Assembly: GCA_030599585.1 (NCBI GenBank)
Contig: JAUVNS010000012.1
Location: forward strand, 64,001 to 128,000
Length of the DNA stretch: 64,000 nt
DNA from: Promethearchaeota archaeon
Lineage (GTDB): Archaea > Asgardarchaeota > Lokiarchaeia > Sigyniarchaeales > SOKP01
Direction: 5' to 3'
Within the stretch, counting starts at the first letter, position 1. Every line of letters starts with the position of its first letter. Below the pieces are notes generated by a model. It searched no databases. It saw nothing but the letters and a program-made list of their open reading frames with translations, and had not been told where the DNA came from. Below are positions 3,350 to 43,969 of this stretch, one piece after another. A program made the translations under genes and the position numbers.

Positions 3350-3455
3350 ACCTCCAGCTACGCAGAATTACGAATTTTTTTTTTTCTATTTTTAACGCAA
3401 GAATTTTCAAGTTAAAGTAAAAAATTAAGAATTTAGTAAAAAAATATCTTATAAT

Positions 3456-5510
3456 TTATTCCAAATAATCAATTTCTCCTTGGAGTCGAATATCTCTCGA
3501 AGAACTTCCGACTAGTATATTGAAAGCACCAGTTTCAACAACCCAAGAATTGACTGCTTCGTCATAAAAGGAAAGATCCTCTTTTTTCAACTCAAATATA
3601 ACTGTTTTTGTTTCGTTGGGATGTAGAGAGACTTTTTCAAACCTTTTTAACTCTTTGGTTGGCCTTTCTATGCTTGATTTAACATCTTGTATGTATAATT
3701 GAACAATTTCCTTTCCTTCAATTTTTCCGGAGTTAGTGACATCAATGGATACTTTAATTACATCATTATTTTTTATTTTTTTCTTGTCAATCATTAAGTT
3801 TTCGTAACTGAAAGAGGTGTACGATAAACCGAAACCAAACGGGAAAAGTGGTTCAATACTTTTCTTATCAAAATGGCGATAACCAACAAATATACCCTCG
3901 TCATAAAACACCTTGTCATCACCTGGAAATGTTCTTTTAGAAACATGGGCGGGCGAATCTGATAATTTTTTTGGAAAAGTTAGTGTTAGTTTTCCAGAAG
4001 GATTGGTGTCCCCAAAAATTACGCTTGCAATCGCTCTTCCAGCTTCCATACCTCCATACCATGCTTCAACAACAGAAGATACATTATCTATCCAGCTATT
4101 CATGGCTATTGGGCTTCCGTTGATTAGAACTATAATCGTATTAGCACACTCATTCGCAGTTTTTTGTATTAGTTCAATCTGTTCGCTAGGTAATTCAAAG
4201 GATTTCTTATCTTCGCCCTCAGCGTCCATACCGGGGTTATGATTTAATCCAGCAAATATAATTGTTGCATCAGCTTCTGATGGTATTTTCGTGAGTTCTA
4301 CTTGGTTCAAACATTTTTCCTTTAATCCATCAAGAGGACTAATCTTGTAAGGAGGATAATTAATCGAACTACCCCCGCTAGACATAATATCATCTCCCTC
4401 TGTTCTTAAGTTTGCGTTCGGACCAAGCACAGCAATTTTTTTTATTTCATTAATGTTTAATGGTAAACTGGCGTTATCGTTTTTCAAGAGGACAATTCCT
4501 TCTTCTGTAATCTTACGTGCTATTGCTTGATGTTCCGGAGTATTTCTACTACCTTTAGGTACTGCTTTCTCATCGTCGTACAATCCAACAAGAAACATAA
4601 CTCTAATTAATCTTCTAATGTTATCATTCAGATCTTCTTCCGTGAATCCTCCTTCCTGAAAGGCTTTTCTCATATTTGTCTTGTTATATTTTTTTGCAGT
4701 AGGCATCTCAAGAGAGAGTCCAGCCTTAACGCATTCTGCAGTACTTGTAGAAGCAGTTGCATTCCAATCAGAGACGGTAAATCCTCTAAAACCCCATTCT
4801 TCTATCAATCTTTCTTTCAATAAATTGACATTTTCCGATCCATAGATTCCATTTACCTTGTTATAACATGTCATAAAAGACCACGCATCTGCTTCCAGAA
4901 CTGTTGCTTTGAAAGCGGGCAGGTATATTTCTTGCAATGCTCTCTCGCTTACTTCGGTACTAACCGTAAATCTGTTTGTTTCTTGATTATTGCATACAAA
5001 ATGTTTCACACAAGCTGCTATTCTTTGACTTTGAATTCCTTTAACAGTAGCTACCGCTAGAATCTTGTTTAAGTAGGGATCTTCTGTTTGATATTCAAAA
5101 GTTCTACCATTCATTGGAGTTCTTTGAATATTAATTCCAGGAGCTAATAACATATGCGCCCCAACATCTCGAACCTCTTCCCCCACTGCTTTTCCAAATT
5201 CATATGAAAGATTTGGATTCCATGTGGCAGCCCTACATATAGCGGAAGGGAAGTATGTGGATTTTATTTCTCCCAAAGTGTCAGCTCGAACGCCGTGAGG
5301 TCCATCGTACATGGTGAAAGGTTTAACACCTAATCTTTTAATAGGTTTCGTATGCCACATTCGCCTACCTGAACTTAATTTAAATTTCTCCTCTAATGTC
5401 AATCTCCCTAATAAATCCTCAACTCTTTTTTCTAAATCAAGATTCTTGTCCATAAATGGGAATCTTTGAATTTGGTCTTCTGAATATTTTTCGCTCATTT
5501 TCGTTACCAC
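3456..5510 (-). CDS. Glycoside hydrolase family 3 beta-glucosidase (GH3 N + C + Fn3-like)
   Basis: DGPHGVR, PGINIQRTP..GR.FEY.TEDP, KHFVCN, SDW nucleophile motif, VGYRHF, FPFGFGLSYT; start may be the ATG of MSEKYS. Confidence 0.95.
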   Translation of the reverse strand: MVTKMSEKYSEDQIQRFPFMDKNLDLEKRVEDLLGRLTLEEKFKLSSGRRMWHTKPIKRLGVKPFTMYDGPHGVRADTLGEIKSTYFPSAICRAATWNPNLSYEFGKAVGEEVRDVGAHMLLAPGINIQRTPMNGRTFEYQTEDPYLNKILAVATVKGIQSQRIAACVKHFVCNNQETNRFTVSTEVSERALQEIYLPAFKATVLEADAWSFMTCYNKVNGIYGSENVNLLKERLIEEWGFRGFTVSDWNATASTSTAECVKAGLSLEMPTAKKYNKTNMRKAFQEGGFTEEDLNDNIRRLIRVMFLVGLYDDEKAVPKGSRNTPEHQAIARKITEEGIVLLKNDNASLPLNINEIKKIAVLGPNANLRTEGDDIMSSGGSSINYPPYKISPLDGLKEKCLNQVELTKIPSEADATIIFAGLNHNPGMDAEGEDKKSFELPSEQIELIQKTANECANTIIVLINGSPIAMNSWIDNVSSVVEAWYGGMEAGRAIASVIFGDTNPSGKLTLTFPKKLSDSPAHVSKRTFPGDDKVFYDEGIFVGYRHFDKKSIEPLFPFGFGLSYTSFSYENLMIDKKKIKNNDVIKVSIDVTNSGKIEGKEIVQLYIQDVKSSIERPTKELKRFEKVSLHPNETKTVIFELKKEDLSFYDEAVNSWVVETGAFNILVGSSSRDIRLQGEIDYLE

Positions 5511-5684
5511 TACCTAATACTTTAATTTTAAAATACAGAATAAAAAATAACTTTATCTGAATGAAAAAATTTATGATTTTATCAATATCACTCTTAATAC
5601 TATAAAGAATAGGATTTTGTTTTTAATAAATTAAAATCTTACTCGTTTAAAATAAAAAAAAAATTTAAAACGGAACTGAATGCT

Positions 5685-33428: not shown

Positions 33429-34550
33429 TTATTTCTTCTTTAGGAATTGCTTATAAATTAGCACATAGTTTTTTACACTCACTACTTTAGGATTACGCCT
33501 AAAACTAGATGGGATAGGAGTGCTACAACGGGAACAGAGGTTTGAAGTCCGCATCCAATCTTTAAATTCATCAGCGTGGGAAGGATACCTACACTTTGGA
33601 CACACAACTACTCCCCGTCCTCTATCTTCAGGAAGTTTTGGTAATTTAAAACAAAAGATGCACTTAAAATCCTCTAACGTTAAATACGATGCCCTTGGCC
33701 TAAAATTAGTCAGATTTCGAACCTTTGGAGTCGATTTGACTTTAGTTGTACGAGAAATATTTGAAGTTTTAGTTCTAGTAGTTTGTCTACGTGATGTGGG
33801 TGTTATTCTTGATGATTTAGTTCTTGAGCTTGATGTACGCGTAGTTGTCCTAGTAGAGGGAGTTGGATTAGTGACCCTCGTTGTCCGTACACGTTGTCTC
33901 TGTGTTGTAGGTGAGGTCAAATTATTAATCGTTCTAGTACGGTTTGCAATATAATCACGAGTTAATGTTGGTAATGATGAGCTTGTACTAGCAAATCCAA
34001 ACACTATTACTATTAAAATTGTAGCTAATAATAGAAGTAAGAGATTCAAATCCAATGGAAAACTTTCGTTAACGCTGTAAAAACTTATCCAATAGGTTAA
34101 AATGAAAATTAAAACAGAGAAGGATAGAATATATCCCAAGGTTCTCGCTTTTACTGCTTTTGTTCCAAAATATATTACGTTGTATTTTTTAAAACAGCGA
34201 TATAGAGAGTAAGAGCCAAATATTATAAAAGGAAAAGCAAAAATAAGGCTCCATAAACTAAAATATAGACCTCCAAGTAGATTCTCTCCTAATACTCCTG
34301 TGTAAAAACCCCAAATAGAATAAAAAATTCCAATACCTAAAGGAACAATGACAAAAAATGCGGTATTATGTGGTGAATTAAACTCACGGTGACGTTTAAT
34401 GTTTTCAAATATTTTTAATGTAAAAATTAACCATAACCCAATTAATAACCAAGTTGCAAAATTAGTAAAAGAATAAGTGAGCAAACCATGAATTACACCA
34501 ATAATCAGAAATGCGGTAAATATTATTGTTAAAATTTTATTTTTAACCAT
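33429..34550 (-). CDS. Six-TM membrane protein with Thr/Arg/Ser-rich linker and C-terminal RING-like zinc finger (putative E3 ligase)
   Basis: Six hydrophobic segments; C-x2-C-x16-C-x2-C-x4-H-x2-E-x3-W-x6-C-x2-C; last gene of the Ubl-E1-E2-JAMM run. Confidence 0.7.
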   Translation of the reverse strand: MVKNKILTIIFTAFLIIGVIHGLLTYSFTNFATWLLIGLWLIFTLKIFENIKRHREFNSPHNTAFFVIVPLGIGIFYSIWGFYTGVLGENLLGGLYFSLWSLIFAFPFIIFGSYSLYRCFKKYNVIYFGTKAVKARTLGYILSFSVLIFILTYWISFYSVNESFPLDLNLLLLLLATILIVIVFGFASTSSSLPTLTRDYIANRTRTINNLTSPTTQRQRVRTTRVTNPTPSTRTTTRTSSSRTKSSRITPTSRRQTTRTKTSNISRTTKVKSTPKVRNLTNFRPRASYLTLEDFKCIFCFKLPKLPEDRGRGVVVCPKCRYPSHADEFKDWMRTSNLCSRCSTPIPSSFRRNPKVVSVKNYVLIYKQFLKKK

Positions 34551-34581
34551 GATTTGATATCACCAAAGATGTTTTTTATCT

Positions 34582-35406
34582 TTATTCATCATATTCTAAA
34601 TATGCTGGTTTTCCATGAATAATTGGGTTCATGAATTCCAAAATTTCTGGTAACATTCTCACATCTAAATGCCCCTTAATATCAAAAGGCACTGAGAACC
34701 ACTTCCGAGTTTTAAAATTTGCGCGATAAATTTCAAAACCAAAAGATTTCCCGTTAATTTGATATGGATCGATGACGAGTGCTACAGCTTTATTCCACAA
34801 TTTCTGATACCTTGCCTGAGTTCCTAAATCTTCTCTTGACATGAAGCAGCCGTAACTCGGATGGGAATGATACCAGCCTGTAATAAAAAGCCCCTTTTTT
34901 TTAATATCTCTGAAAGCTCTCACATAATTCTTATAATCCTTTATTTCAGCATAAACCGCGGTCCCATGTCCCATTGGATAAGCATCCTCCAAGTGTAAGA
35001 CTCCTTTAGCACTATCATAGTTCCCTGCGAGTAAACCTATTACTTCCACCCAATCATCTCTAGGTATTTTAGAATTAGCATATTTTAAAGAATGGCTCGC
35101 GATCTTAAGAATTGCTTTTGTAGTGATAGCTATCTTAGCTTTAGTTCTCTCGTTACTAGCTACAGTTTTTACTGGTTCCATGGGGATGGGTTCAAGTTTG
35201 ACTTTATTTGAATGAATAATCGGCTTCGCTTTGATAATCTCAGTTGTTATTTCTTCTTGTAATTCTTCTAATTGTAACTCAGTGTATACTTCTTCAAGTA
35301 ATTCTTTTTTAATTTTCTCTTTAATTTTTTGTTTTATAGCATCTCTGATTGATTCGCTATTCTTTTCATCGATATTCATTCTAGGTTCACCATTTATCCT
35401 TGGCAT
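34582..35406 (-). CDS. JAMM/MPN+ metalloprotease (Rpn11/CSN5-like deubiquitinase)
   Basis: EVIGLL, GWYHSHP..G..MS..D..TQ..YQ, ALVIDP. Confidence 0.93.
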   Translation of the reverse strand: MPRINGEPRMNIDEKNSESIRDAIKQKIKEKIKKELLEEVYTELQLEELQEEITTEIIKAKPIIHSNKVKLEPIPMEPVKTVASNERTKAKIAITTKAILKIASHSLKYANSKIPRDDWVEVIGLLAGNYDSAKGVLHLEDAYPMGHGTAVYAEIKDYKNYVRAFRDIKKKGLFITGWYHSHPSYGCFMSREDLGTQARYQKLWNKAVALVIDPYQINGKSFGFEIYRANFKTRKWFSVPFDIKGHLDVRMLPEILEFMNPIIHGKPAYLEYDE

Positions 35407-35914
35407 ACTTCTTTACTAAATTTTTAACTTTTTTATCAAAAAATTTCGGATTTTTCATCATTTCTATAGCTGCTTTTTTATTAAACACATCAGTCGGATT
35501 AACATATTTTCCTCGAGTGTTTAACATAGCAATTATTGCATGAACAACTGTAACCGCTGTTTTTGAAGGACTCCATCCTCCTTTTTTGCCAATTAGAGAC
35601 GGATCTACTAAAGCTAAGCAAATATTTCTTTGTCCTTTATATTCACTTGGCTTTGGCCAAAAATTTGGGTGCCATATTGGAGTATGCAATCTAACAAAAG
35701 GAGGCTGTTTAGGATATTGAATGGGAAACCTCATTTCTAATTTAAACAATCCTCCAGCATAGGCAGTGCCTTTAGGGCCTTTAATCAATACAGCTAAGTG
35801 ATCGATACTCTTTTTTTTTGGATTAAATGGCTTCAATTGAATAATAGTACCCTGTTTTAGCAACTTTTTTAGTCCCGCAAAATCTCGGGAAACTCGACTA
35901 CTTCTTATACTCAT
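35387..35914 (-). CDS. Ubiquitin-conjugating enzyme E2 (UBC fold)
   Basis: GP.GT.Y.GG.F...FP..YP..PP....T.IWHPN, NICL catalytic Cys, WSP. Confidence 0.93.
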   Translation of the reverse strand: MSIRSSRVSRDFAGLKKLLKQGTIIQLKPFNPKKKSIDHLAVLIKGPKGTAYAGGLFKLEMRFPIQYPKQPPFVRLHTPIWHPNFWPKPSEYKGQRNICLALVDPSLIGKKGGWSPSKTAVTVVHAIIAMLNTRGKYVNPTDVFNKKAAIEMMKNPKFFDKKVKNLVKKYAKDKW

Positions 35915-35969
35915 ATTCTTAACCCCGTTTTTTTTATTATATTTTAAAATTATGTTTTGAATTAAATTA

Positions 35970-37202
35970 TTATTTAATTTTTAAGGTTACATGAATTTCT
36001 CCGCCTTTAAACCCCGCAACGGTTAGAAATTCGTAATTCCTTAAATTATTTTGAGTTGGGTTTTGCTCTAAATCTAAAACAATAATATCATTAAAATCCA
36101 ATAGAGTTATTATCGGTTCAAATTCAGAATCCAATTCAAATCCATTTCTTTCTAGCGTATTAATTATATTTACGCAAGGTGAACTATCTCTCATTTTAAT
36201 GGAAACTCGTCTTGCACTTTTACCACATTGAGAACATTCTGGATTTCTCTTCTTTTCAATGTGGTGTAATTTCATAGTCATCGCATTAAATATAATGTAA
36301 TTTTTGATGGGCTCACCTAAGCCCTTGTGACCTTTTTCCCAATGAAGGATTTTAACCGCTTCATGAGATTGTAATGCTGAAATAGTTGCGTTAATCGTAA
36401 TGATGCCAGGATCGTGGCGATCAATAATTTTTACGATATCATCTTCAGTATATTCAGGTAAAAAATTATGCTTTATTACATACTCATTCGCAACTTTTTG
36501 AATAAATCTAATATCTTCGATATTTTTAGGATTCGGATCTTTATCAAATTTCTCTTTAAAGGCCATATCCCCTTTAAAAACGCAATGAATTCTTTTTCGA
36601 GGGATACCAACTACTGTACAAGCTGCCATATCATCATTTTGGATGTCGGGTAATGGATTACATTCATAACATGCATTTTGAAATGGAAATATCGTATATA
36701 CATGACCATAATAACCAGAAACCCCTCCATCTACCAAAGGTTTCTTAAATCTAATGCATTGAGCGTTTAAGTTCAACCTTGCATTCATTGAATCAAGACC
36801 TCCAATTACAACATCTGAAGCGTGATAGAGTGCTGGATTTAATCTTTCTAAGGATGTATGATACCCTTTAACAATAATATTAGGATTAATTTCGACCAAT
36901 TTTCTAGCAGCAATAAATGCTTTAGGTTCTCCTAACTTTGCTCCAGCAAAGAGAATTTGACGATTCAGGTTAGAATGTTCAATTATATCAATATCAACAA
37001 GATCTATATGACCAACGCCCAACATACTTAAATTCTTGGCAATTTCACATCCCAAACCACCAACCCCAGCGATTAACACTCTTGAATTTTTAACTAATTT
37101 CTGGGACCAACCTTCTAAACGAAATTGGCGATCGTATAAGTCTCTCTCTTCTTCTGACATTCCTTTTGTAAAAAAATCTGAATCCTTATGCAATATTATC
37201 AC
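35970..37202 (-). CDS. Ubiquitin-like activating enzyme E1 (ThiF fold with Uba2/Uba3-like catalytic Cys region)
   Basis: YDRQ, GVGGLGCE.AKNL, D.D.IE.SNLNRQ.LF, GLDS..AR, CYEC, ACTVVGIPR...HC, C..C. Confidence 0.93.
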   Translation of the reverse strand: MIILHKDSDFFTKGMSEEERDLYDRQFRLEGWSQKLVKNSRVLIAGVGGLGCEIAKNLSMLGVGHIDLVDIDIIEHSNLNRQILFAGAKLGEPKAFIAARKLVEINPNIIVKGYHTSLERLNPALYHASDVVIGGLDSMNARLNLNAQCIRFKKPLVDGGVSGYYGHVYTIFPFQNACYECNPLPDIQNDDMAACTVVGIPRKRIHCVFKGDMAFKEKFDKDPNPKNIEDIRFIQKVANEYVIKHNFLPEYTEDDIVKIIDRHDPGIITINATISALQSHEAVKILHWEKGHKGLGEPIKNYIIFNAMTMKLHHIEKKRNPECSQCGKSARRVSIKMRDSSPCVNIINTLERNGFELDSEFEPIITLLDFNDIIVLDLEQNPTQNNLRNYEFLTVAGFKGGEIHVTLKIK

Positions 37203-37282: not shown

Positions 37283-37615
37283 TTAAAAGTATCCAGCTGT
37301 ACTCGCTGGGATCAAAAGAATATCGTCGCCGTTACTAACACTATAGTCTTTTAACTGGCTACCTTCATCCATTGTTACGCCACCAGAACTAATGTGAAAG
37401 TCATCTGGATCAAGTCCAAATAAATTTCCAAGCGTTTGTTTGATATCACTTATGTTATTTGCGTCGTTTACAGTCAACTTTTCCTTCTTTTCACCAGGAC
37501 CAATAGTTGACATGAAATATAAAGTCAATTTTTTGCCTGTTGAGGGAACTTTGCTTGATGGGGTTTTAGAGCTAACTGGTTCTAATTCCTCATCAAAATC
37601 TTCATCAAAACTCAT
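37283..37615 (-). CDS. Ubiquitin-like modifier 1 (acidic N-tail; C-terminus ...STAG-YF)
   Basis: Beta-grasp pattern (ISDIK..L....GL......L..GG..MD....LKDY.V.NGD.I.L); first gene of the E1/E2/JAMM operon. Confidence 0.85.
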   Translation of the reverse strand: MSFDEDFDEELEPVSSKTPSSKVPSTGKKLTLYFMSTIGPGEKKEKLTVNDANNISDIKQTLGNLFGLDPDDFHISSGGVTMDEGSQLKDYSVSNGDDILLIPASTAGYF

Positions 37616-37876
37616 TCAAATCACTCCTTTATTTTTTTAATTTAAGTTTTTTTTTAAAACTTAATAATATCACGTTAAAATGATATTAAAAAACCCATTG
37701 GAATGATTTTGAAGTTTTTTGAGTTTTGTTTAAAATGTGAGTATCCATGTTAAAAAACCTAATATAATATATTTATAAATTAAATGAATGTCTATCAATA
37801 TATATAAATAGGAAAATATCGTTTTAGAGAGAAGATTTGATAAAATATATCAGTTAATTCAACCCGTTAAAATAAA

Positions 37877-38560
37877 ATGCTTATGAACACTCCGGATAAC
37901 CTTCAATCTATTGTTTGTGATATCATAAAGGAATATCTAAAAAAGAAACCTTTCTTTTCAATAGAAGATATAGTGGTGTTCATCGCTAATAGAGTGAGAT
38001 CGAATCCTAATCTAAATAGGAACAGCATTGAACTCATTATTAAAAATCTTATAAAAAAAAGAATTCTGATCCCTGGAACCAAATTAATGAAGAATAATAT
38101 AATAGAATTACCAATACGAAACGAAATTTACAACCATATTAAGAAACACCCATCGAACATTAATGAAATAATGAAAGCAATCAATATTGGAAGCAACCAA
38201 GCGCTCTGGCATTTGTCCACGTTAGAGAAGTTTAGATTTACGCGATCAAAAAAAATCAATAATCAAAGAATGATTTTTGAATATGAATCTAATCCCGATC
38301 TAGATGAGTTGTATTACTATTTGAAACAGGATGTTGTGCAAGATATTATCAACCTTCTGAAAGAAGAACACAAAACCTTTAAAATCACGGAAATAGCTGC
38401 GAATTTAAAAAGAAATTACAATACTGTAAAGAAATATCTTGAAATATTAAGAAATCTGAAAATAATAAAAATTGAAAAAAATAAAAAAAGAGTTCTATAT
38501 AGAATAGACCTAGAGAAATATGACAATCTCAAGAAATCAATTATTGATAATGAACTATAA
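37877..38560 (+). CDS. Multi-winged-helix transcriptional regulator (ArsR-like repeats)
   Basis: R.EIY..I...P...EI.......Q..WHL..LE and ITEIA..L...YNTV.KYL..L patterns; divergent from the Ubl operon. Confidence 0.75.
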   Translation: MLMNTPDNLQSIVCDIIKEYLKKKPFFSIEDIVVFIANRVRSNPNLNRNSIELIIKNLIKKRILIPGTKLMKNNIIELPIRNEIYNHIKKHPSNINEIMKAINIGSNQALWHLSTLEKFRFTRSKKINNQRMIFEYESNPDLDELYYYLKQDVVQDIINLLKEEHKTFKITEIAANLKRNYNTVKKYLEILRNLKIIKIEKNKKRVLYRIDLEKYDNLKKSIIDNEL

Positions 38561-38639
38561 AAATTACGAATTTATACCAATTGAATTTATAAAATTAGAT
38601 AATAATTAGAAAATTAGATAATACTTTAATCAAAAAATC

Positions 38640-39434
38640 ATGAAGAAAAAATATAGAGTTTTAAATATTATAACTCTTTATGTTGTTTTCGCTTTAATCT
38701 ATTTGACTTTCTTCCTATTACAACTAGATAGTTTACCATTATTCCTCTTTCTAACTATTGGGAGTGTTGCTGTATTATCGACAGGTACGATCTATACCGT
38801 CGTTCAATATAAAAGCAGCCCAGCGAAGAGGATAAAAAAAGACAAATATTATCAAAAGCCAAAATCTATCAAAAGAACTTCGAGTGAACTGATTGAGGAT
38901 TACCTTGAAGCTATGCCATTAATAGATCAATACGCTGACACCACTGAAACCTTTGAAAATATTGATTCAATCGATGATTATATTTTTACTTTTTTCACTC
39001 AGGAAGTATTAGATAAAATCGATTTGTTAGGGTTTTCAAAAATGGATAAAATCTTTTTTATCAGAGAGATGTTGTATTTTGATGCTGATGAGAGAAAGCA
39101 ACTTATTGATGATATTTTGAAAAATAAAGATTTAATTGACGAACAGATAACATACAACCCTCCATTAACCACAATTGGAATGGATGATAAAGTTCGCGTT
39201 TATGTAAGATCCTTAGTCGAACCGGGGGAGAGAACCAAAATCATCATTATTGAAACCTCCGAATTAATAGATATAATCAAGGAGCAAGTTGGAATTCTTT
39301 TTGATTATAGTTTGGAAGATTTTCATTTATCTTCGGGGGGAATTCTCCTTTCCACAGAAAAGCAAATAAAGGACTATTTTATTGACGATGATGACGAAAT
39401 TGCTCTGATTCCGTCGAGAAAAAAAGATAAATAG
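38640..39434 (+). CDS. Two-TM membrane protein with C-terminal ubiquitin-like domain lacking terminal Gly
   Basis: Two N-terminal TMs; last ~80 aa align with the neighbouring Ubls (PGE, DFHLSSGG, KDY, D.I.LIP) but end SRKKDK. Confidence 0.8.
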   Translation: MKKKYRVLNIITLYVVFALIYLTFFLLQLDSLPLFLFLTIGSVAVLSTGTIYTVVQYKSSPAKRIKKDKYYQKPKSIKRTSSELIEDYLEAMPLIDQYADTTETFENIDSIDDYIFTFFTQEVLDKIDLLGFSKMDKIFFIREMLYFDADERKQLIDDILKNKDLIDEQITYNPPLTTIGMDDKVRVYVRSLVEPGERTKIIIIETSELIDIIKEQVGILFDYSLEDFHLSSGGILLSTEKQIKDYFIDDDDEIALIPSRKKDK

Positions 39435-39450
39435 AATGAGATTTTTTTTC

Positions 39451-41109
39451 CTAGAGATTTCTAATTTCTTGAAACCTACTAATAACCCATTTTTTATCCA
39501 AGGCAGCTATGAATGGTGCAAACCGAGGACCCCTTGTTCTTCCAAGAAACAATTGATAGAGTAGTTCAAAGAATTGATTCATATCCTTACGATTTATTTC
39601 TGCTTCTTCTCGTAAGGTTATCATTTTTTGTTTTATATCTTCCTCAGTCCAGTTTGTTTCTTCGAGTGCTTGTCCAAGATCTAAAACAAAGTTACGTATC
39701 TTTTCGTTATACTGCCTTAAAACAACTGGCGAAACGTGTTTGCTTAATTGTATTCTGAGATGTTTTGGAGAATATTCTGATATTACCCAATTCTTAGCCA
39801 GATTTAATCTTTTTTGAATATGATCAGTAATCTCCTTTGATGGGCTTTCTTTTAACTTTTCTGTTGCTATTAATTTTTCAATAACTTGTTCAGTTCCCTT
39901 TTGGTCAGGAGTTACTAGTTGGGAATGAATAAGAGCAGTTTGATAGTCAAATTGGAATCCTCTATATTCTGGGATGTCATTATAAAACGCAATTTCATAA
40001 CTCCTTTGAATTGTATGAAGTTCTGCTGAATCGGTAAATGATTCTATTTTATGATAGATTCTCTGGGCTCGATCGTATTCTGCAATATAACTCGGGATCT
40101 TATCTAAACCCAGAATAATGCGTCTTTTTGGAGGTGTTTTGAGATATTTATATTTCAATACTTCTGGTTCAGCATATTCTAACCATTTTGTTGGTGTGAA
40201 CCCGATGAAACCTGAGCTTGTCATATCTCCAAAATCTTTTCGACCTTCTGAATAGCCAACCCATTCATTCCAAAATCCATATGGCCCTTTATGATTTAGG
40301 ACAGATTCTAGAACTTCAATACAACTATCACGGGATCCTCCTGGTGTAGCATGGTCCTTTCCATACGGTTCAAAATGTATATCCAGAACGTACCATATTG
40401 CCAACCATTCAAGCCGCCAAGTTAATTTTCCCTTGCTAATATCTGACCATCCGTCGTTCTTGCATTCATCACAGAAATAATGAACTTGGTAGGTATCAAG
40501 ATTAACTTCCAAAGCTTTTGTTGTACCTATTCGATTACAATGCTGACATAGTGGATTAATGGGAATCCAATTCTCGGGAAAAGGATTTTCTTTACGAAAT
40601 TTATTTAAGATTTCTCGAACCTTGTCCTTTTTGTTAATAAGCTCGATTACTACATTTTTCATTCTCTCCTGCTGATATAATTCATGAGTTCTGATGATCT
40701 GAATGCCTCGTCCAAATTTGGGCATTGGTACTCCAAAATCTTTCCAATAATAATCCACCCAGGTTTCTTTTTGATTGTTAGGAGAAGGAACATCGATTAA
40801 ACGCCAGTTAATAAATTCTTTTGCTTTCTCCAGATCTGGAAACGCATTTAATTGAGCAAGTTTCCCCTTCCATGGGTCTGATGTATAGAGAATTAAATTG
40901 TGTGTGGCTTGATATCCCCGATTTTGGAGTTCATTTACAATCGCATTCGCAAGAACAATCTCTCCTCTTAAGCGTCCGATGTGTTGTTGACCAGATACAG
41001 AAATTCCACAATTGCAATTAAAATCTTTTATTCCTAGCCAATTCTTTATTAGATCGGATGTTAATTTATCTATCCAATGCTGAGGTTGTATCTTTGGCTT
41101 CTCTGTCAT
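39451..41109 (-). CDS. lysS: Lysyl-tRNA synthetase, class I
   Basis: SG..HIG..RG, C..C, GKL.WR.EW...W, EPYGKDHA..GGS, MTSSG, GPR. Confidence 0.95.
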   Translation of the reverse strand: MTEKPKIQPQHWIDKLTSDLIKNWLGIKDFNCNCGISVSGQQHIGRLRGEIVLANAIVNELQNRGYQATHNLILYTSDPWKGKLAQLNAFPDLEKAKEFINWRLIDVPSPNNQKETWVDYYWKDFGVPMPKFGRGIQIIRTHELYQQERMKNVVIELINKKDKVREILNKFRKENPFPENWIPINPLCQHCNRIGTTKALEVNLDTYQVHYFCDECKNDGWSDISKGKLTWRLEWLAIWYVLDIHFEPYGKDHATPGGSRDSCIEVLESVLNHKGPYGFWNEWVGYSEGRKDFGDMTSSGFIGFTPTKWLEYAEPEVLKYKYLKTPPKRRIILGLDKIPSYIAEYDRAQRIYHKIESFTDSAELHTIQRSYEIAFYNDIPEYRGFQFDYQTALIHSQLVTPDQKGTEQVIEKLIATEKLKESPSKEITDHIQKRLNLAKNWVISEYSPKHLRIQLSKHVSPVVLRQYNEKIRNFVLDLGQALEETNWTEEDIKQKMITLREEAEINRKDMNQFFELLYQLFLGRTRGPRFAPFIAALDKKWVISRFQEIRNL

Positions 41110-41242: not shown

Positions 41243-41629
41243 TCAACCAGCAATGCTAGCTGGAATTAATAATATATCATCTCCATCAGCTACATTGTAA
41301 TCGTTAAGGTTAGAGAATTCATCCATGGTAACTCCCCCTGAAGACAAATGAAAATCAGATGGATCTAAAGCAAATAAATTCGCTACAGTATCTTTGATGT
41401 CTCCAATTTTATTCCCTGTGAATACAAGCAATTTTTGTTTTTTCTCCCCTGGTCCTATAGTGGATAGAAAAAAAACTGAAATCTTTTTTCCTTCAGGAGA
41501 CTTTTTGCGTTCTGGGGTCTTAACTCTAAAATCTTTTGTAGGGTGCTTTGAAGACGGATCGTCAAAATCTTCATCTAAGCTTTCATCAAAATCCTCATCG
41601 AATTCTTCGTCGAACTCCTCTTCATCCAT
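41243..41629 (-). CDS. Ubiquitin-like modifier 2 (long acidic N-tail; mature C-terminus ...SIAG)
   Basis: Close paralog of 37283..37615 (STIGPGEKK, DFHLSSGGVTMDE, GDDILLIPAS.AG). Confidence 0.85.
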   Translation of the reverse strand: MDEEEFDEEFDEDFDESLDEDFDDPSSKHPTKDFRVKTPERKKSPEGKKISVFFLSTIGPGEKKQKLLVFTGNKIGDIKDTVANLFALDPSDFHLSSGGVTMDEFSNLNDYNVADGDDILLIPASIAG

Positions 41630-41807: not shown

Positions 41808-42911
41808 ATGAAGGAAAAACCTATTCCTAAGTATCAAATTCGAGAAAAAACGCCCGAAGAGCAACTAGAACCCATCCCTAATGCGAAATTACTTAAAAAA
41901 ATTAAGGAAGAAAGAATTAAATTAAATAAAGAGAAAACTGAATGGGAACGAATTATTAATAAAATTGAAGGGTCTCAAGATAATATTCAAGATTTAGAAA
42001 AAAAAAGAAAAGAAAAAGAACTTCAAGTGAGAGATCTCCAAAACAAACACGAAAAACTAAAAACTAAATTAGATAATATGAGAAACGAAATAAAAGAAAG
42101 TAAATATAATCTCAATGCAAAAGAAAGGGAGTTAGACCAGAAAAATGCCGACTTAGAGCAATATAAAGAGAGATTAGACGGAATAAGAGGCGAATTAGAA
42201 AGCGAGAAGAAATACATAGAAAAAGAAAAAGAAAAAGCAAAAGACAGAATTAAAGAAATAAAAACCAAGTTACCCGGAATGGAACGGAGAGAGAATGCGT
42301 TAGAGAGAACAATCGAAAAGTTGGAAAACAATTTAATGGATTTACGAAACGAAGGTAAAAGCTTAACGAGAGAGAGAGATAACCTAAACAAAGAAATCAA
42401 TAGTTTGAGAAGAGAGATAATAGATGAAAAAAATCGAATTGATAATGAGAAAAGAAGATTAAAAGATGAAAAGGAAAAGGTTCGCTATAAGAAAAAAGAC
42501 TTAAGTCTTCAAGCTCGTGATATTGAGAAAAAAAAAGAGAAATTGGGAAAATTTAAAGAGAATGTAAACCACGACGTAAGAGATTTAGAAAGAAAGAAAA
42601 AAGGGCACGAGGCAAGGTTAAAAGAATTAGACCGGAAAGTACCCAAAGCTGAAGATACTTATTTTTCACTAGAACACAAAATTAATAATTCAGAGAATAA
42701 ATTGAAAAATTTAAAAACCGAAATAAAAAAATTGGAAAAGGAAAAATCGAAAATTGAGGATGATAAATTTTCAATTAGAAAGGAGAGGCAAAGATTAGAC
42801 AGTGATAAAGAGAGATTTCTTAGAGAAAAGAAAAGTTTTGAGAGAGAATTAAAAAAGGCAAAAGAAATACCAAAATATAAAATCAAATCAAAAACTCCTT
42901 CGAGATATTAA
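41808..42911 (+). CDS. Long coiled-coil protein with matching terminal motifs
   Basis: ~310 aa K/E/R/L heptad region flanked by IPKYQIREKTP and IPKYKIKSKTP. Confidence 0.75.
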   Translation: MKEKPIPKYQIREKTPEEQLEPIPNAKLLKKIKEERIKLNKEKTEWERIINKIEGSQDNIQDLEKKRKEKELQVRDLQNKHEKLKTKLDNMRNEIKESKYNLNAKERELDQKNADLEQYKERLDGIRGELESEKKYIEKEKEKAKDRIKEIKTKLPGMERRENALERTIEKLENNLMDLRNEGKSLTRERDNLNKEINSLRREIIDEKNRIDNEKRRLKDEKEKVRYKKKDLSLQARDIEKKKEKLGKFKENVNHDVRDLERKKKGHEARLKELDRKVPKAEDTYFSLEHKINNSENKLKNLKTEIKKLEKEKSKIEDDKFSIRKERQRLDSDKERFLREKKSFERELKKAKEIPKYKIKSKTPSRY

Positions 42912-42919
42912 TCAGTTAA

Positions 42920-43969
42920 GTGGGGGGACTTATGAAGATTCCAAAAGGAATTGAAGGCGATTACCTTGAAATAAAAGAAAACCACCTTTTTTTCGATATA
43001 AAAGGGTATCACCACCCCCAAGACCGAAAAATTTGTTTTTTAAGATTTTACCCCGATCAAAATGGGGATAGAATAAAGGAAGGCAAGAAGTATAAAAAAA
43101 TCTATTCCTTGGATGATAGATATCTGAAAGTAAGAGAAGAATACCCGCAATATCTTTTTTTTTCAAACGAACTTGATTTAGAACTCCAAGGCGTTAAAAT
43201 CGGAGACATTAAAAAAATATACACCCCAAGGGATTATTACTATACGCTAATCACGAAGAAACAATTAGTAGGGGTCGAATTAGCTTTAGTACAATTGTGC
43301 GAGTTGTTTATTAAGAAATGTAAAGTGGATGAGAACTTAATAGGAATATCTGGATCACCCATGGTCGGATTAAATAAAGAAAAGACTGATTTAGATATAT
43401 TAATATATGGTACTCGCGAGAGCTTAGAATTTCAAAACAATTTAAAAAAGATCTTTAGTGTATCAAAGGGTTTAAGGAAGTATAGTGCACAAGAATATAA
43501 AACTCACTACAATTGGAGATTTGGAGGATCTAGCTTTAACTTTGAGAATTTTCTTAAAAGTGAAAAAAGAAAACTCCATCAAGGGAAATATAATGGAACT
43601 GATTTTTTTATTCGGTATATTAAAAGCCCGGAAGATTGGAAAGGAAATTTTTACGATTACCAATTTAAGAATCTAGGAAGGATTGAAATACAAGCAAAGA
43701 TTGTAGATTCATCTGATTCCATTTTTACTCCCTGCTCTTATAAAATTAAATGTAAAGAAATCATGGATAAAAATCTTATTGTGAATAGCATAAATTTAAA
43801 CGATATTACTGAAATCAACTCCTTTCGCGGGAGGTTTTGTGAACACGCTAAGGATGGAGAAAGCGTATTAGTTAAAGGAAAACTAGAAGAAGTAATTTTC
43901 AAAGGTAACCAAAAACATCTAAGAATTTTACTCACGGATCAAACTCAAGATATTTTTTGCGTAATATAG
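42920..43969 (+). CDS. Predicted nucleotidyltransferase (COG1665-like)
   Basis: EGDY, F..KG..HP, G.SGS..VG.....DLD...YG, SFRGRFCE.A..GE...V.G..E. Confidence 0.8.
   Translation: MGGLMKIPKGIEGDYLEIKENHLFFDIKGYHHPQDRKICFLRFYPDQNGDRIKEGKKYKKIYSLDDRYLKVREEYPQYLFFSNELDLELQGVKIGDIKKIYTPRDYYYTLITKKQLVGVELALVQLCELFIKKCKVDENLIGISGSPMVGLNKEKTDLDILIYGTRESLEFQNNLKKIFSVSKGLRKYSAQEYKTHYNWRFGGSSFNFENFLKSEKRKLHQGKYNGTDFFIRYIKSPEDWKGNFYDYQFKNLGRIEIQAKIVDSSDSIFTPCSYKIKCKEIMDKNLIVNSINLNDITEINSFRGRFCEHAKDGESVLVKGKLEEVIFKGNQKHLRILLTDQTQDIFCVI

Follow-up and report, generated by a model that had tools for sequence, protein, structure and literature searches.

Organization of the Ubiquitin Locus and the mUBL Gene

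We analyzed a stretch of 64,000 nucleotides from a Promethearchaeota archaeon of the Lokiarchaeia (assembly GCA_030599585.1, contig JAUVNS010000012.1, positions 64,001 to 128,000; hereafter the window, with a G+C content of about 32%), which carries the genes of a ubiquitin-like conjugation system. The gene under study (38640..39434, + strand) encodes a protein of 264 amino acids, here called mUBL. Its translated open reading frame (ORF) consists of a two-helix membrane hairpin, a basic linker, a helical domain of about 85 amino acids (the tail domain) and a C-terminal beta-grasp domain of the ubiquitin-like (UBL) type. The same strand carries, 79 nt upstream of mUBL, a gene for a protein of 227 amino acids with three winged helices (37877..38560, +), identified by Pfam helix-turn-helix families and profile matches and referred to as the winged helix-turn-helix (wHTH) protein. 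The wHTH gene is divergent from the gene for Ubl1 (37283..37615, − strand), a free modifier that ends in ..IPASTAG-YF. Ubl1 is the first gene of an operon which further contains the genes (33429..37202, −) for E1 (ThiF), E2 (UQ_con), a JAMM protease (JAB) and a multi-transmembrane (multi-TM) RING-type protein with a C-terminal RING-like finger, as assigned by Pfam and found in the same order in related loci. A second modifier, Ubl2 (41243..41629, −), ends in ..IPASIAG and is 60% identical to Ubl1. An earlier reading of the window made from the letters and translations alone (the sequence-only reading) had placed mUBL behind a wHTH gene divergent from the Ubl operon, and the positions confirm this arrangement.

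The two transmembrane (TM) helices of mUBL (residues ~7–27 and ~34–55; 38658..38804, +) were identified from hydropathy, charge distribution and the identity per segment. Residues 5–55 are hydrophobic throughout (Kyte-Doolittle values above 1.6 in windows of 19 amino acids), with a turn at the loop QLDSLP. Four Lys or Arg residues precede the hydrophobic stretch, none occurs in the loop and ten are found in residues 56–80. Because of this hydropathy profile and charge distribution, mUBL is predicted to form an N-in/C-in hairpin with both ends in the cytoplasm, and the two N-terminal TM helices of the sequence-only reading are borne out. A first AlphaFold2 (AF2) model of the full-length protein, made with an alignment of 17 close orthologues, placed helices at residues 2–27 and 32–46 and was poor, with a mean predicted local distance difference test (pLDDT) value of 42; it was replaced by a model of residues 66–264 made with a mixed alignment of 111 rows.

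A word-indexed search identified 401 homologues of mUBL; those listed are nearly all 260–270 amino acids long, with a few shorter forms, and the best 120 of the 401 show 59–94% identity to mUBL. In databases the family is named "hypothetical" or "ubiquitin-like domain-containing protein." Full-length orthologues (39–94% identity) occur in four genera of a single Lokiarchaeial family. In a search of 400 genomes of the phylum, full-length copies were found only in this family, namely in the majority of the g1 and g12 genomes and in some of those of g5 and g11, and matches outside it were limited to the UBL part, aligned with free Ubls. The genomes surveyed are metagenome bins of uneven completeness, and every absence reported here means that a gene was not found among those searched. 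The alignment of 17 orthologues contains 68 invariant columns. TM2 is the best conserved segment (mean identity among orthologues 89%), followed by the UBL domain (76%), the tail domain (66%) and the linkers (45–60%), and in TM2 the residues G41, S42, V43, L46, S47, T48, T50, I51, Y52, and T53 are invariant.

The UBL Domain Is a Non-conjugatable Paralogue of the Local Modifiers

The UBL domain (residues 184–259; 39189..39416, +) was assigned by BLASTP, AF2, Foldseek, VIA and a phylogenetic tree. Residues 184–260 give gap-free alignments with both Ubl1 (36% identity, E 2e-17) and Ubl2 (38% identity, E 1e-15), and the motifs on which the sequence-only reading had based its claim of colinearity with the two modifiers are all present. 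Structure prediction, which that reading had proposed as a check, yielded a beta-grasp: in the model of residues 66–264 the domain has pLDDT values of 86–96 over residues 184–258 and the order of elements E-E-H-E-h-E. The model resembles ubiquitin, ISG15, SUMO and the Caldiarchaeum ubiquitin in Foldseek (TM-score by target 0.78–0.92), with a TM-score by target of 0.78 and a root-mean-square deviation (rmsd) of 1.6 Å for the Caldiarchaeum chain 6fno_D, and a VIA match covers 77 residues (Z 14.2, rmsd 1.4 Å). The Pfam ubiquitin family PF00240 matches mUBL at E 0.003 and 17.7 bits, under its cut-off of 25.4, and a precomputed PF00240 match is present in several orthologues. By alignment, the hydrophobic patch L8/I44/V70 of ubiquitin would correspond to L192, L230, and I257 of mUBL, which are hydrophobic and conserved.

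At the C-terminus, where the modifiers have S(T/I)AG, mUBL has the basic end SRKKDK followed by the stop codon (39417..39434, +). The protein thus ends in ..IPSRKKDK as compared to ..IPAS(T/I)AG for Ubl1 and Ubl2; there is no Cys near the end, and the chain stops one or two residues beyond the equivalent of Gly76 of ubiquitin. The replacement of AG by SRKKDK, already pointed out in the sequence-only reading, is a conserved property: the terminal Gly is absent from all 26 orthologue ends examined, none of these has a Gly anywhere in its last 25 residues, and the terminus is rich in Lys and Arg in all orthologues, whereas ..IPAS[TVI]AG is kept in all 50 free Ubls of the same loci. mUBL therefore lacks the C-terminal Gly for adenylation by E1 which defines conjugatable (type-I) modifiers such as ubiquitin, SUMO, SAMP, and Ubl1 and Ubl2 themselves. 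It has the arrangement of a type-II protein, in which a ubiquitin fold is part of a larger, unprocessed protein, with the order TM-TM-tail-UBL kept at full length. In a tree without a resolved root, the UBL domains of mUBL proteins form one clade (support 100/99) with a long stem and short inner branches, a shape that fits a single fusion followed by fast change and subsequent constraint. We conclude that the C-terminal domain of mUBL is a beta-grasp paralogue of Ubl1 and Ubl2 with a conserved, non-conjugatable end.

The Tail Domain Is Shared With Receptor-Like Membrane Proteins

The region between the membrane hairpin and the UBL domain forms a domain of its own (residues ~81–165; 38880..39134, +), with five predicted helices (pLDDT 63–82) and the motif ..KID.L.LS..EK..FI.EML.L.P.ER..LI..ML. 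The sequence-only reading was right about the anchor and the UBL part and had overlooked this independent domain. A profile search with mUBL against 1.8 billion representative proteins splits the query in two: positions 180–260 match free and fused Ubls, and positions 33–165 match the extreme C-termini of other proteins. At least 50 such tail proteins were matched. Proteins ending in the tail domain range from 150 to more than 2000 residues, with bodies consisting of right-handed beta-helix/NosD, WD40 or LamG domains, and a few carry two tails in tandem. Several have an N-terminal leader and a single TM helix immediately before the match, and several matches begin within TM2 of mUBL. The TM helices of these proteins and TM2 of mUBL have the motif IGS.A..S....Y in common, and a basic juxtamembrane stretch is also present. 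Because the TM helix shares this motif, the mobile unit is taken to be the TM helix, the basic stretch and the tail domain together.

Many tail proteins have a finger of the form C-x2-H...C-P-x-C...C-x2-C...C-W-x-C between the TM helix and the tail, which gives weak matches to RING, B-box and double-zinc-ribbon families, all below the Pfam cut-off. Examples are P0157, P0161, P0164, P0167, P0185, the protein encoded at 3415–5523 (−) of locus L060 and P0176, in which the finger follows the tail. To judge from these motifs, the zinc-finger tail proteins may constitute a receptor-like family of membrane ligases.

The tail domain belongs to no Pfam family, its profile found nothing below E 0.3 among the PDB sequences, and the Atlas feature search gave no usable neighbor. 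The PDB and Atlas fold searches with the model of residues 66–264 were filled by ubiquitin-fold matches. Sub-threshold Pfam leads were obtained for TRI4_N (9 of 63 tails, best E 9e-4) and Cue1_U7BR (3 of 63, E 0.02) and were not used for assignment.

Tail Genes Are Usually Paired With Genes for Three-Winged-Helix Proteins

In each of the 29 other loci examined, mUBL is immediately preceded on its own strand by a gene for a wHTH protein of 220–227 amino acids. The pair is also present in two further genera, and its conservation beside Ubl operons, which had been suggested as a check, is supported. Ubl1 is divergent from the wHTH gene in most of the loci in which that flank could be read. Profile searches with the wHTH protein matched DNA binders of the ArsR, IclR, Lrs14, MarR and TFE types, and its third winged helix has a weak match to Penicillinase_R. 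A relation to the ESCRT-II proteins Vps22 and Vps25 was considered; the Pfam and PDB profile searches, which compared the proteins by sequence, returned DNA-binding HTH families only and no ESCRT-II/EAP30 match. Orthologous loci do not preserve the first ATG of the wHTH gene (37877) but keep the second (37883) as ATGA(A/G)C (ATGAAC in the window), so the protein probably starts there with MNTPD.

The pairing is not limited to mUBL. With the tail profile three tail genes were identified in the genome of mUBL, namely mUBL itself and two genes for proteins of about 450 amino acids consisting of a leader, an ectodomain, a TM helix and the tail. Each of the latter two is followed by a gene for a protein of 226–229 amino acids, which overlaps it or lies 9 nt away (G000 contig 21, 243501–244444, locus L039; contig 20, 194687–195620, locus L040). 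These partners are 27–30% identical to the mUBL-linked wHTH protein over the full length. A genome-wide search with the wHTH protein gave the same two partners of tail genes as its closest paralogues (E 6e-23 and 1e-20; next match 6e-8), and all three tail genes of this genome are thus paired. Among 21 genomes, an adjacent wHTH gene was found for all nine mUBL genes and for seven of ten other tail genes (16 of 19 in total). The pairing was also seen on two unrelated metagenome contigs, and in families f3 and f4 a wHTH gene follows ORFs of 700–800 amino acids ending in a degenerate tail motif, once together with a zinc finger. As a genome of 3–5 Mb contains only about 3–12 matches to the wHTH family, we estimate that the probability for a tail gene to have such a neighbor by chance would be well below 1%. 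When the wHTH protein was co-folded with the tail domain, the score of 0.42 was nearly that of one control (0.41), which speaks neither for nor against binding.

Since mUBL shares its tail and TM helix with receptor-like proteins that are paired with paralogous wHTH proteins, a signaling or regulatory unit is indicated rather than a passive scaffold. We conclude that Lokiarchaeia have a family of receptor-plus-regulator pairs, sometimes with a RING-like finger, which is not described by any database family. Two wHTH-family members (L061, 2367–3437, +; L062, 82–1110, +) have, with start codons as predicted, about 130 extra N-terminal residues including a hydrophobic, TM-like stretch, and some members of the family may themselves be membrane-anchored regulators.

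The Ubl1 and mUBL Upstream Regions Share a Conserved Element

A generic search for repeats in the AT-rich intergenic regions was uninformative. Phylogenetic footprinting with an alignment of the Ubl1/wHTH intergenic region of 23 loci identified a block of about 35 nt (37686–37720) which is at least 90% conserved while its AT-rich flanks drift. This block contains element A (37691..37718, +), with the core CCATTGGAATGAWTTTGAAGTTTT, next to the A/T-rich, TATA-like sequence of Ubl1. Element A occurs once in the window and once in the genome, and is present in 26 of 28 loci. An inverted copy, element B (38560..38583, −), lies beside a TTTATAAAA box, overlaps the wHTH stop codon and is located about 55 nt upstream of the mUBL start. 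The conserved length of the elements is 24–28 nt, and in the window B matches A at 17 of 24 positions. With up to 6 mismatches allowed, 25 of 29 loci have element B in this position, and so do the g5 loci. Relative to the transcription of Ubl1 and mUBL the two elements have the same orientation, and each is followed by an A/T-rich, TATA-like sequence.

Loci without the wHTH and mUBL genes gave no match to the element, and neither did the promoter of Ubl2 or those of the paralogous receptor/wHTH pairs. One of these pairs has a conserved upstream block of its own that is unlike the element of the mUBL locus. The shared element suggests common control of the Ubl1 operon and mUBL, with the wHTH protein as the obvious candidate regulator. 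Two g12 loci, L027 (G190) and L034 (G194), have neither copy of the element at up to 6 mismatches. In the same two loci the 1.5 kb around the wHTH gene yielded no Ubl1, and G190 has a Ubl-like match about 3.5 kb from mUBL.

The wHTH-mUBL Unit Is an Accessory of an Older Conjugation Cassette

In 25 of 27 informative loci the next gene after mUBL is Ubl2, in convergent orientation. In the window the two are separated by a gene for a class-I lysyl-tRNA synthetase (39451..41109, −), which is absent in most related loci and looks like a recent local insertion; loci L010 and L022, in which no Ubl2 was found within 1.5 kb, may contain an insertion there too. The g5 loci have the same arrangement as the window. 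In the g11 loci Ubl1, wHTH and mUBL are kept together and the genes for E1, E2 and JAMM are not adjacent. In two of these (L073, 10934–11266; L076, 2754–3188) Ubl1 is followed by a short gene whose match to the multi-TM ligase is confined to the RING end, with E1, E2 and JAMM outside the neighborhood. Two other genera of this family, g13 and g6, and one genome of another family have the full operon for the TM-RING protein, JAMM, E2, E1 and Ubl with a single Ubl and with neither wHTH nor mUBL. Because these sister genera keep the complete cascade without them, wHTH, mUBL and the second Ubl together make up an accessory unit that was added to an older cassette. As judged from gene content, mUBL is an accessory component and not a core scaffold, and the wHTH gene belongs with mUBL and the Ubl1 promoter rather than with the enzymes. 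No proteasome or Cdc48 gene is present within the conserved mUBL locus.

Beyond Ubl2, the window contains genes for a coiled-coil protein of 367 amino acids (41808–42911, +) and a protein of 349 amino acids without a Pfam family (42920–43969, +). The two genes are conserved divergent neighbors of the Ubl gene even in genomes lacking mUBL, and in the loci of g13, g6 and the other family the RING-JAMM-E2-E1-Ubl operon is directly divergent from the coiled-coil gene. Both proteins may belong functionally to the ubiquitin locus.

Fused Ubls of another kind were also found, in which a conjugatable Ubl (..IPSSTAG) is located behind other domains (P0148, P0153, P0158, P0159, P0171, P0174, P0144, P0172, P0169, and P0137). 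The domains in front include a CPxC zinc-ribbon-type N-domain with a coiled coil and a HerA-type ATPase; other N-domains, judged by eye, are possibly roadblock- or longin-like, and one fusion protein has three UBL repeats. Given their C-termini, these proteins would allow whole domains to be conjugated along with the modifier.

Interpretation of the mUBL/wHTH Pair

The reading that we favor, tentatively, is that mUBL is a receptor without an ectodomain, in which a pseudo-modifier connects the Ubl machinery with the wHTH regulator. The TM helix and the cytoplasmic tail would derive from the Lokiarchaeial surface-protein family whose members each work with their own three-winged-helix regulator. 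The ectodomain would have been replaced by an N-terminal signal-anchor and a loop of six residues, and a copy of the Ubl of the cluster would have been fused behind the tail, with loss of its conjugatable Ala-Gly end. The resulting UBL domain, fixed and uncleavable, could serve as a membrane-bound stand-in for the modifier on which a Ubl-recognizing component (E1, E2, JAMM, the RING ligase or a Ubl receptor) would dock. The tail domain would relay this docking to the wHTH protein encoded upstream, which in turn would act on the element beside the promoters of the Ubl1 operon and mUBL. We infer that in this way the pair might adjust the expression of the conjugation operon as the state of the Ubl system changes at the membrane. 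The conserved tail/wHTH pairing together with the shared promoter element provides a concrete hypothesis for the regulation of an archaeal ubiquitin operon.

Several observations weigh against this reading. Three of the ten non-mUBL tail genes have no wHTH neighbor (two of the three lie on short contigs), nor has the tail gene P0160 on a metagenome contig, and the element was not found in two g11 loci despite the presence of the wHTH-mUBL pair. Elements A and B form inverted repeats around the wHTH gene and could have another origin. The TRI4_N and Cue1_U7BR leads would suit binding of ubiquitin or E2 better than binding of a regulator, and the tail domain may have a known binding fold. The sequence-only reading had proposed that mUBL could be a membrane scaffold or decoy which recruits Ubl-binding machinery such as JAMM, the proteasome or Cdc48. 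In a version of this idea, mUBL would be a membrane scaffold or adaptor of the conjugation machinery, comparable to Herp/Usa1, Dsc3/TMUB1 or MUB/UBL3 in eukaryotes. E2 or the multi-TM RING ligase would be recruited or modulated through the UBL domain, and the polar TM2 would pack against helices of the ligase. The weak Cue1_U7BR lead, to an E2-binding domain in 3 of the 63 tails, fits this version. Such a scaffold agrees with a locus shared with the multi-TM RING protein, E2 and the JAMM protease, with TM2 as the best conserved segment, rich in invariant Ser, Thr and Tyr, and with the conserved hydrophobic residues at the presumed ubiquitin-patch positions L192, L230, and I257. However, g13, g6 and another family have the complete TM-RING operon but no mUBL, and in g11 mUBL stays with Ubl1 and wHTH when E1, E2 and JAMM are not adjacent. 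Moreover, mUBL has its TM helix and tail from receptor-like proteins encoded outside Ubl loci, and a scaffold leaves the strict pairing with wHTH unexplained. We consider this reading somewhat unlikely. A beta-grasp Ubl paralogue with a dead end and a conserved wHTH partner, as the scaffold or decoy proposal had it, is retained; the presence of the operon without mUBL in g13, g6 and the other family argues against a core scaffold of the Herp/Usa1 type.

Less probable still is a role of the UBL domain as a delivery signal through which mUBL, with cargo bound to its tail such as the wHTH protein, would reach the proteasome or Cdc48 and there be turned over or released. Parallels for such a role are the UBL-UBA shuttle factors and the ubiquitin- and proteasome-dependent processing of membrane-bound Spt23 and Mga2. 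The ubiquitin fold is intact and the patch positions are apparently kept; many sister tail proteins have a RING-like finger at the place of the UBL domain of mUBL, which suggests ubiquitin-type control, and some wHTH-family members apparently have an N-terminal membrane helix. Against a delivery signal, the conserved locus lacks a proteasome or Cdc48 gene and the fingers of the tail proteins stay under every Pfam threshold. The favored reading, the scaffold and the delivery signal are not mutually exclusive. That mUBL is a precursor which is cut to free a conjugatable Ubl is very improbable: the AG-YF extension of Ubl1 does need trimming and a JAMM protease is encoded nearby, but the UBL domain is the C-terminal domain, so that a cut in front of it would free a domain without an activatable end, and the Gly-less ends hold throughout the orthologues. 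A chance ORF or a decaying duplicate, in favor of which only the diverged UBL sequence can be cited, is refuted for practical purposes by the 401 homologues, the 68 invariant columns and the conserved synteny.

A broader view, which we regard as unlikely though worth stating, is that a hitherto undescribed TM signaling family exists in Lokiarchaeia in which a surface protein with a TM helix and the new tail, often with a RING-like finger, controls a dedicated winged-helix factor via ubiquitin-type chemistry. Within this family mUBL would monitor the ubiquitin system itself, by means of a permanently attached pseudo-ubiquitin in place of both the ectodomain and the RING. If true, this family would be an archaeal forerunner of the ubiquitin-dependent release of membrane-held transcription factors of the Spt23/Mga2 and Nrf1 kind, and also of the integral UBL adaptors of membrane ligases.

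Comparison With Known Systems

A ubiquitin operon with the same Ubl/E1/E2/RING/JAMM cassette is reportedly established in Caldiarchaeum subterraneum. A study of the Asgard Ub-ESCRT system (PMC9192718) describes an archaeal ubiquitin operon with this cassette, and a term search of the paper turned up neither a membrane-anchored protein with a UBL domain nor a wHTH partner. In literature searches, which covered the field incompletely, no description of mUBL or of the tail/wHTH module was found. mUBL is a membrane-anchored UBL protein in an Asgard ubiquitin cluster; it arose from a duplicated local modifier and is under clear constraint. Non-conjugatable UBLs that organize membrane ligases are usually assigned to eukaryotic quality control in the Golgi and in endoplasmic reticulum-associated degradation (ERAD), and mUBL suggests that a division between modifier and docking UBL can arise in archaea.

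In terms of gene logic, mUBL resembles anti-sigma factors with their ECF sigma factors, BlaR1-BlaI and Spt23/Mga2, in which a membrane protein with a cytoplasmic domain is combined with a dedicated DNA-binding protein. The tail of mUBL is unlike known anti-sigma or sensor-protease domains, mUBL has no protease domain, and binding of the regulator is here a prediction. The MUB/UBL3 proteins are membrane-anchored ubiquitin-fold proteins of eukaryotes, of which the MUBs bind E2s non-covalently. They share with mUBL a non-conjugatable ubiquitin fold that is held permanently at the membrane. The anchor of MUB is a C-terminal prenylation (CAAX), whereas mUBL ends in KKDK without a Cys and is anchored by two N-terminal helices.

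Dsc3/TMUB1 of the Dsc (Tul1) Golgi ligase complex combines a UBL with membrane helices and has a membrane RING ligase as a partner. It is similar to mUBL in having a UBL and membrane helices alongside such a ligase, although no sequence relation was detected and both the topology and the set of partners differ. HERP (HERPUD1) and Usa1, to which the sequence-only reading had compared mUBL, are membrane proteins with a UBL domain that belong to the Hrd1 ligase complex of ERAD. They have a hairpin-type anchor, a cytosolic non-conjugatable UBL and a multi-TM RING ligase alongside, as does mUBL. Pfam gives only the generic ubiquitin fold for mUBL and no family of the HERP/Usa1 type. In HERP and Usa1 the UBL is N-terminal and the membrane hairpin C-terminal, whereas in mUBL this order is reversed, with the TM helices first and the UBL last. 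mUBL furthermore differs by its additional tail domain and its strictly associated wHTH partner, and it is dispensable for the cascade in sister genera.

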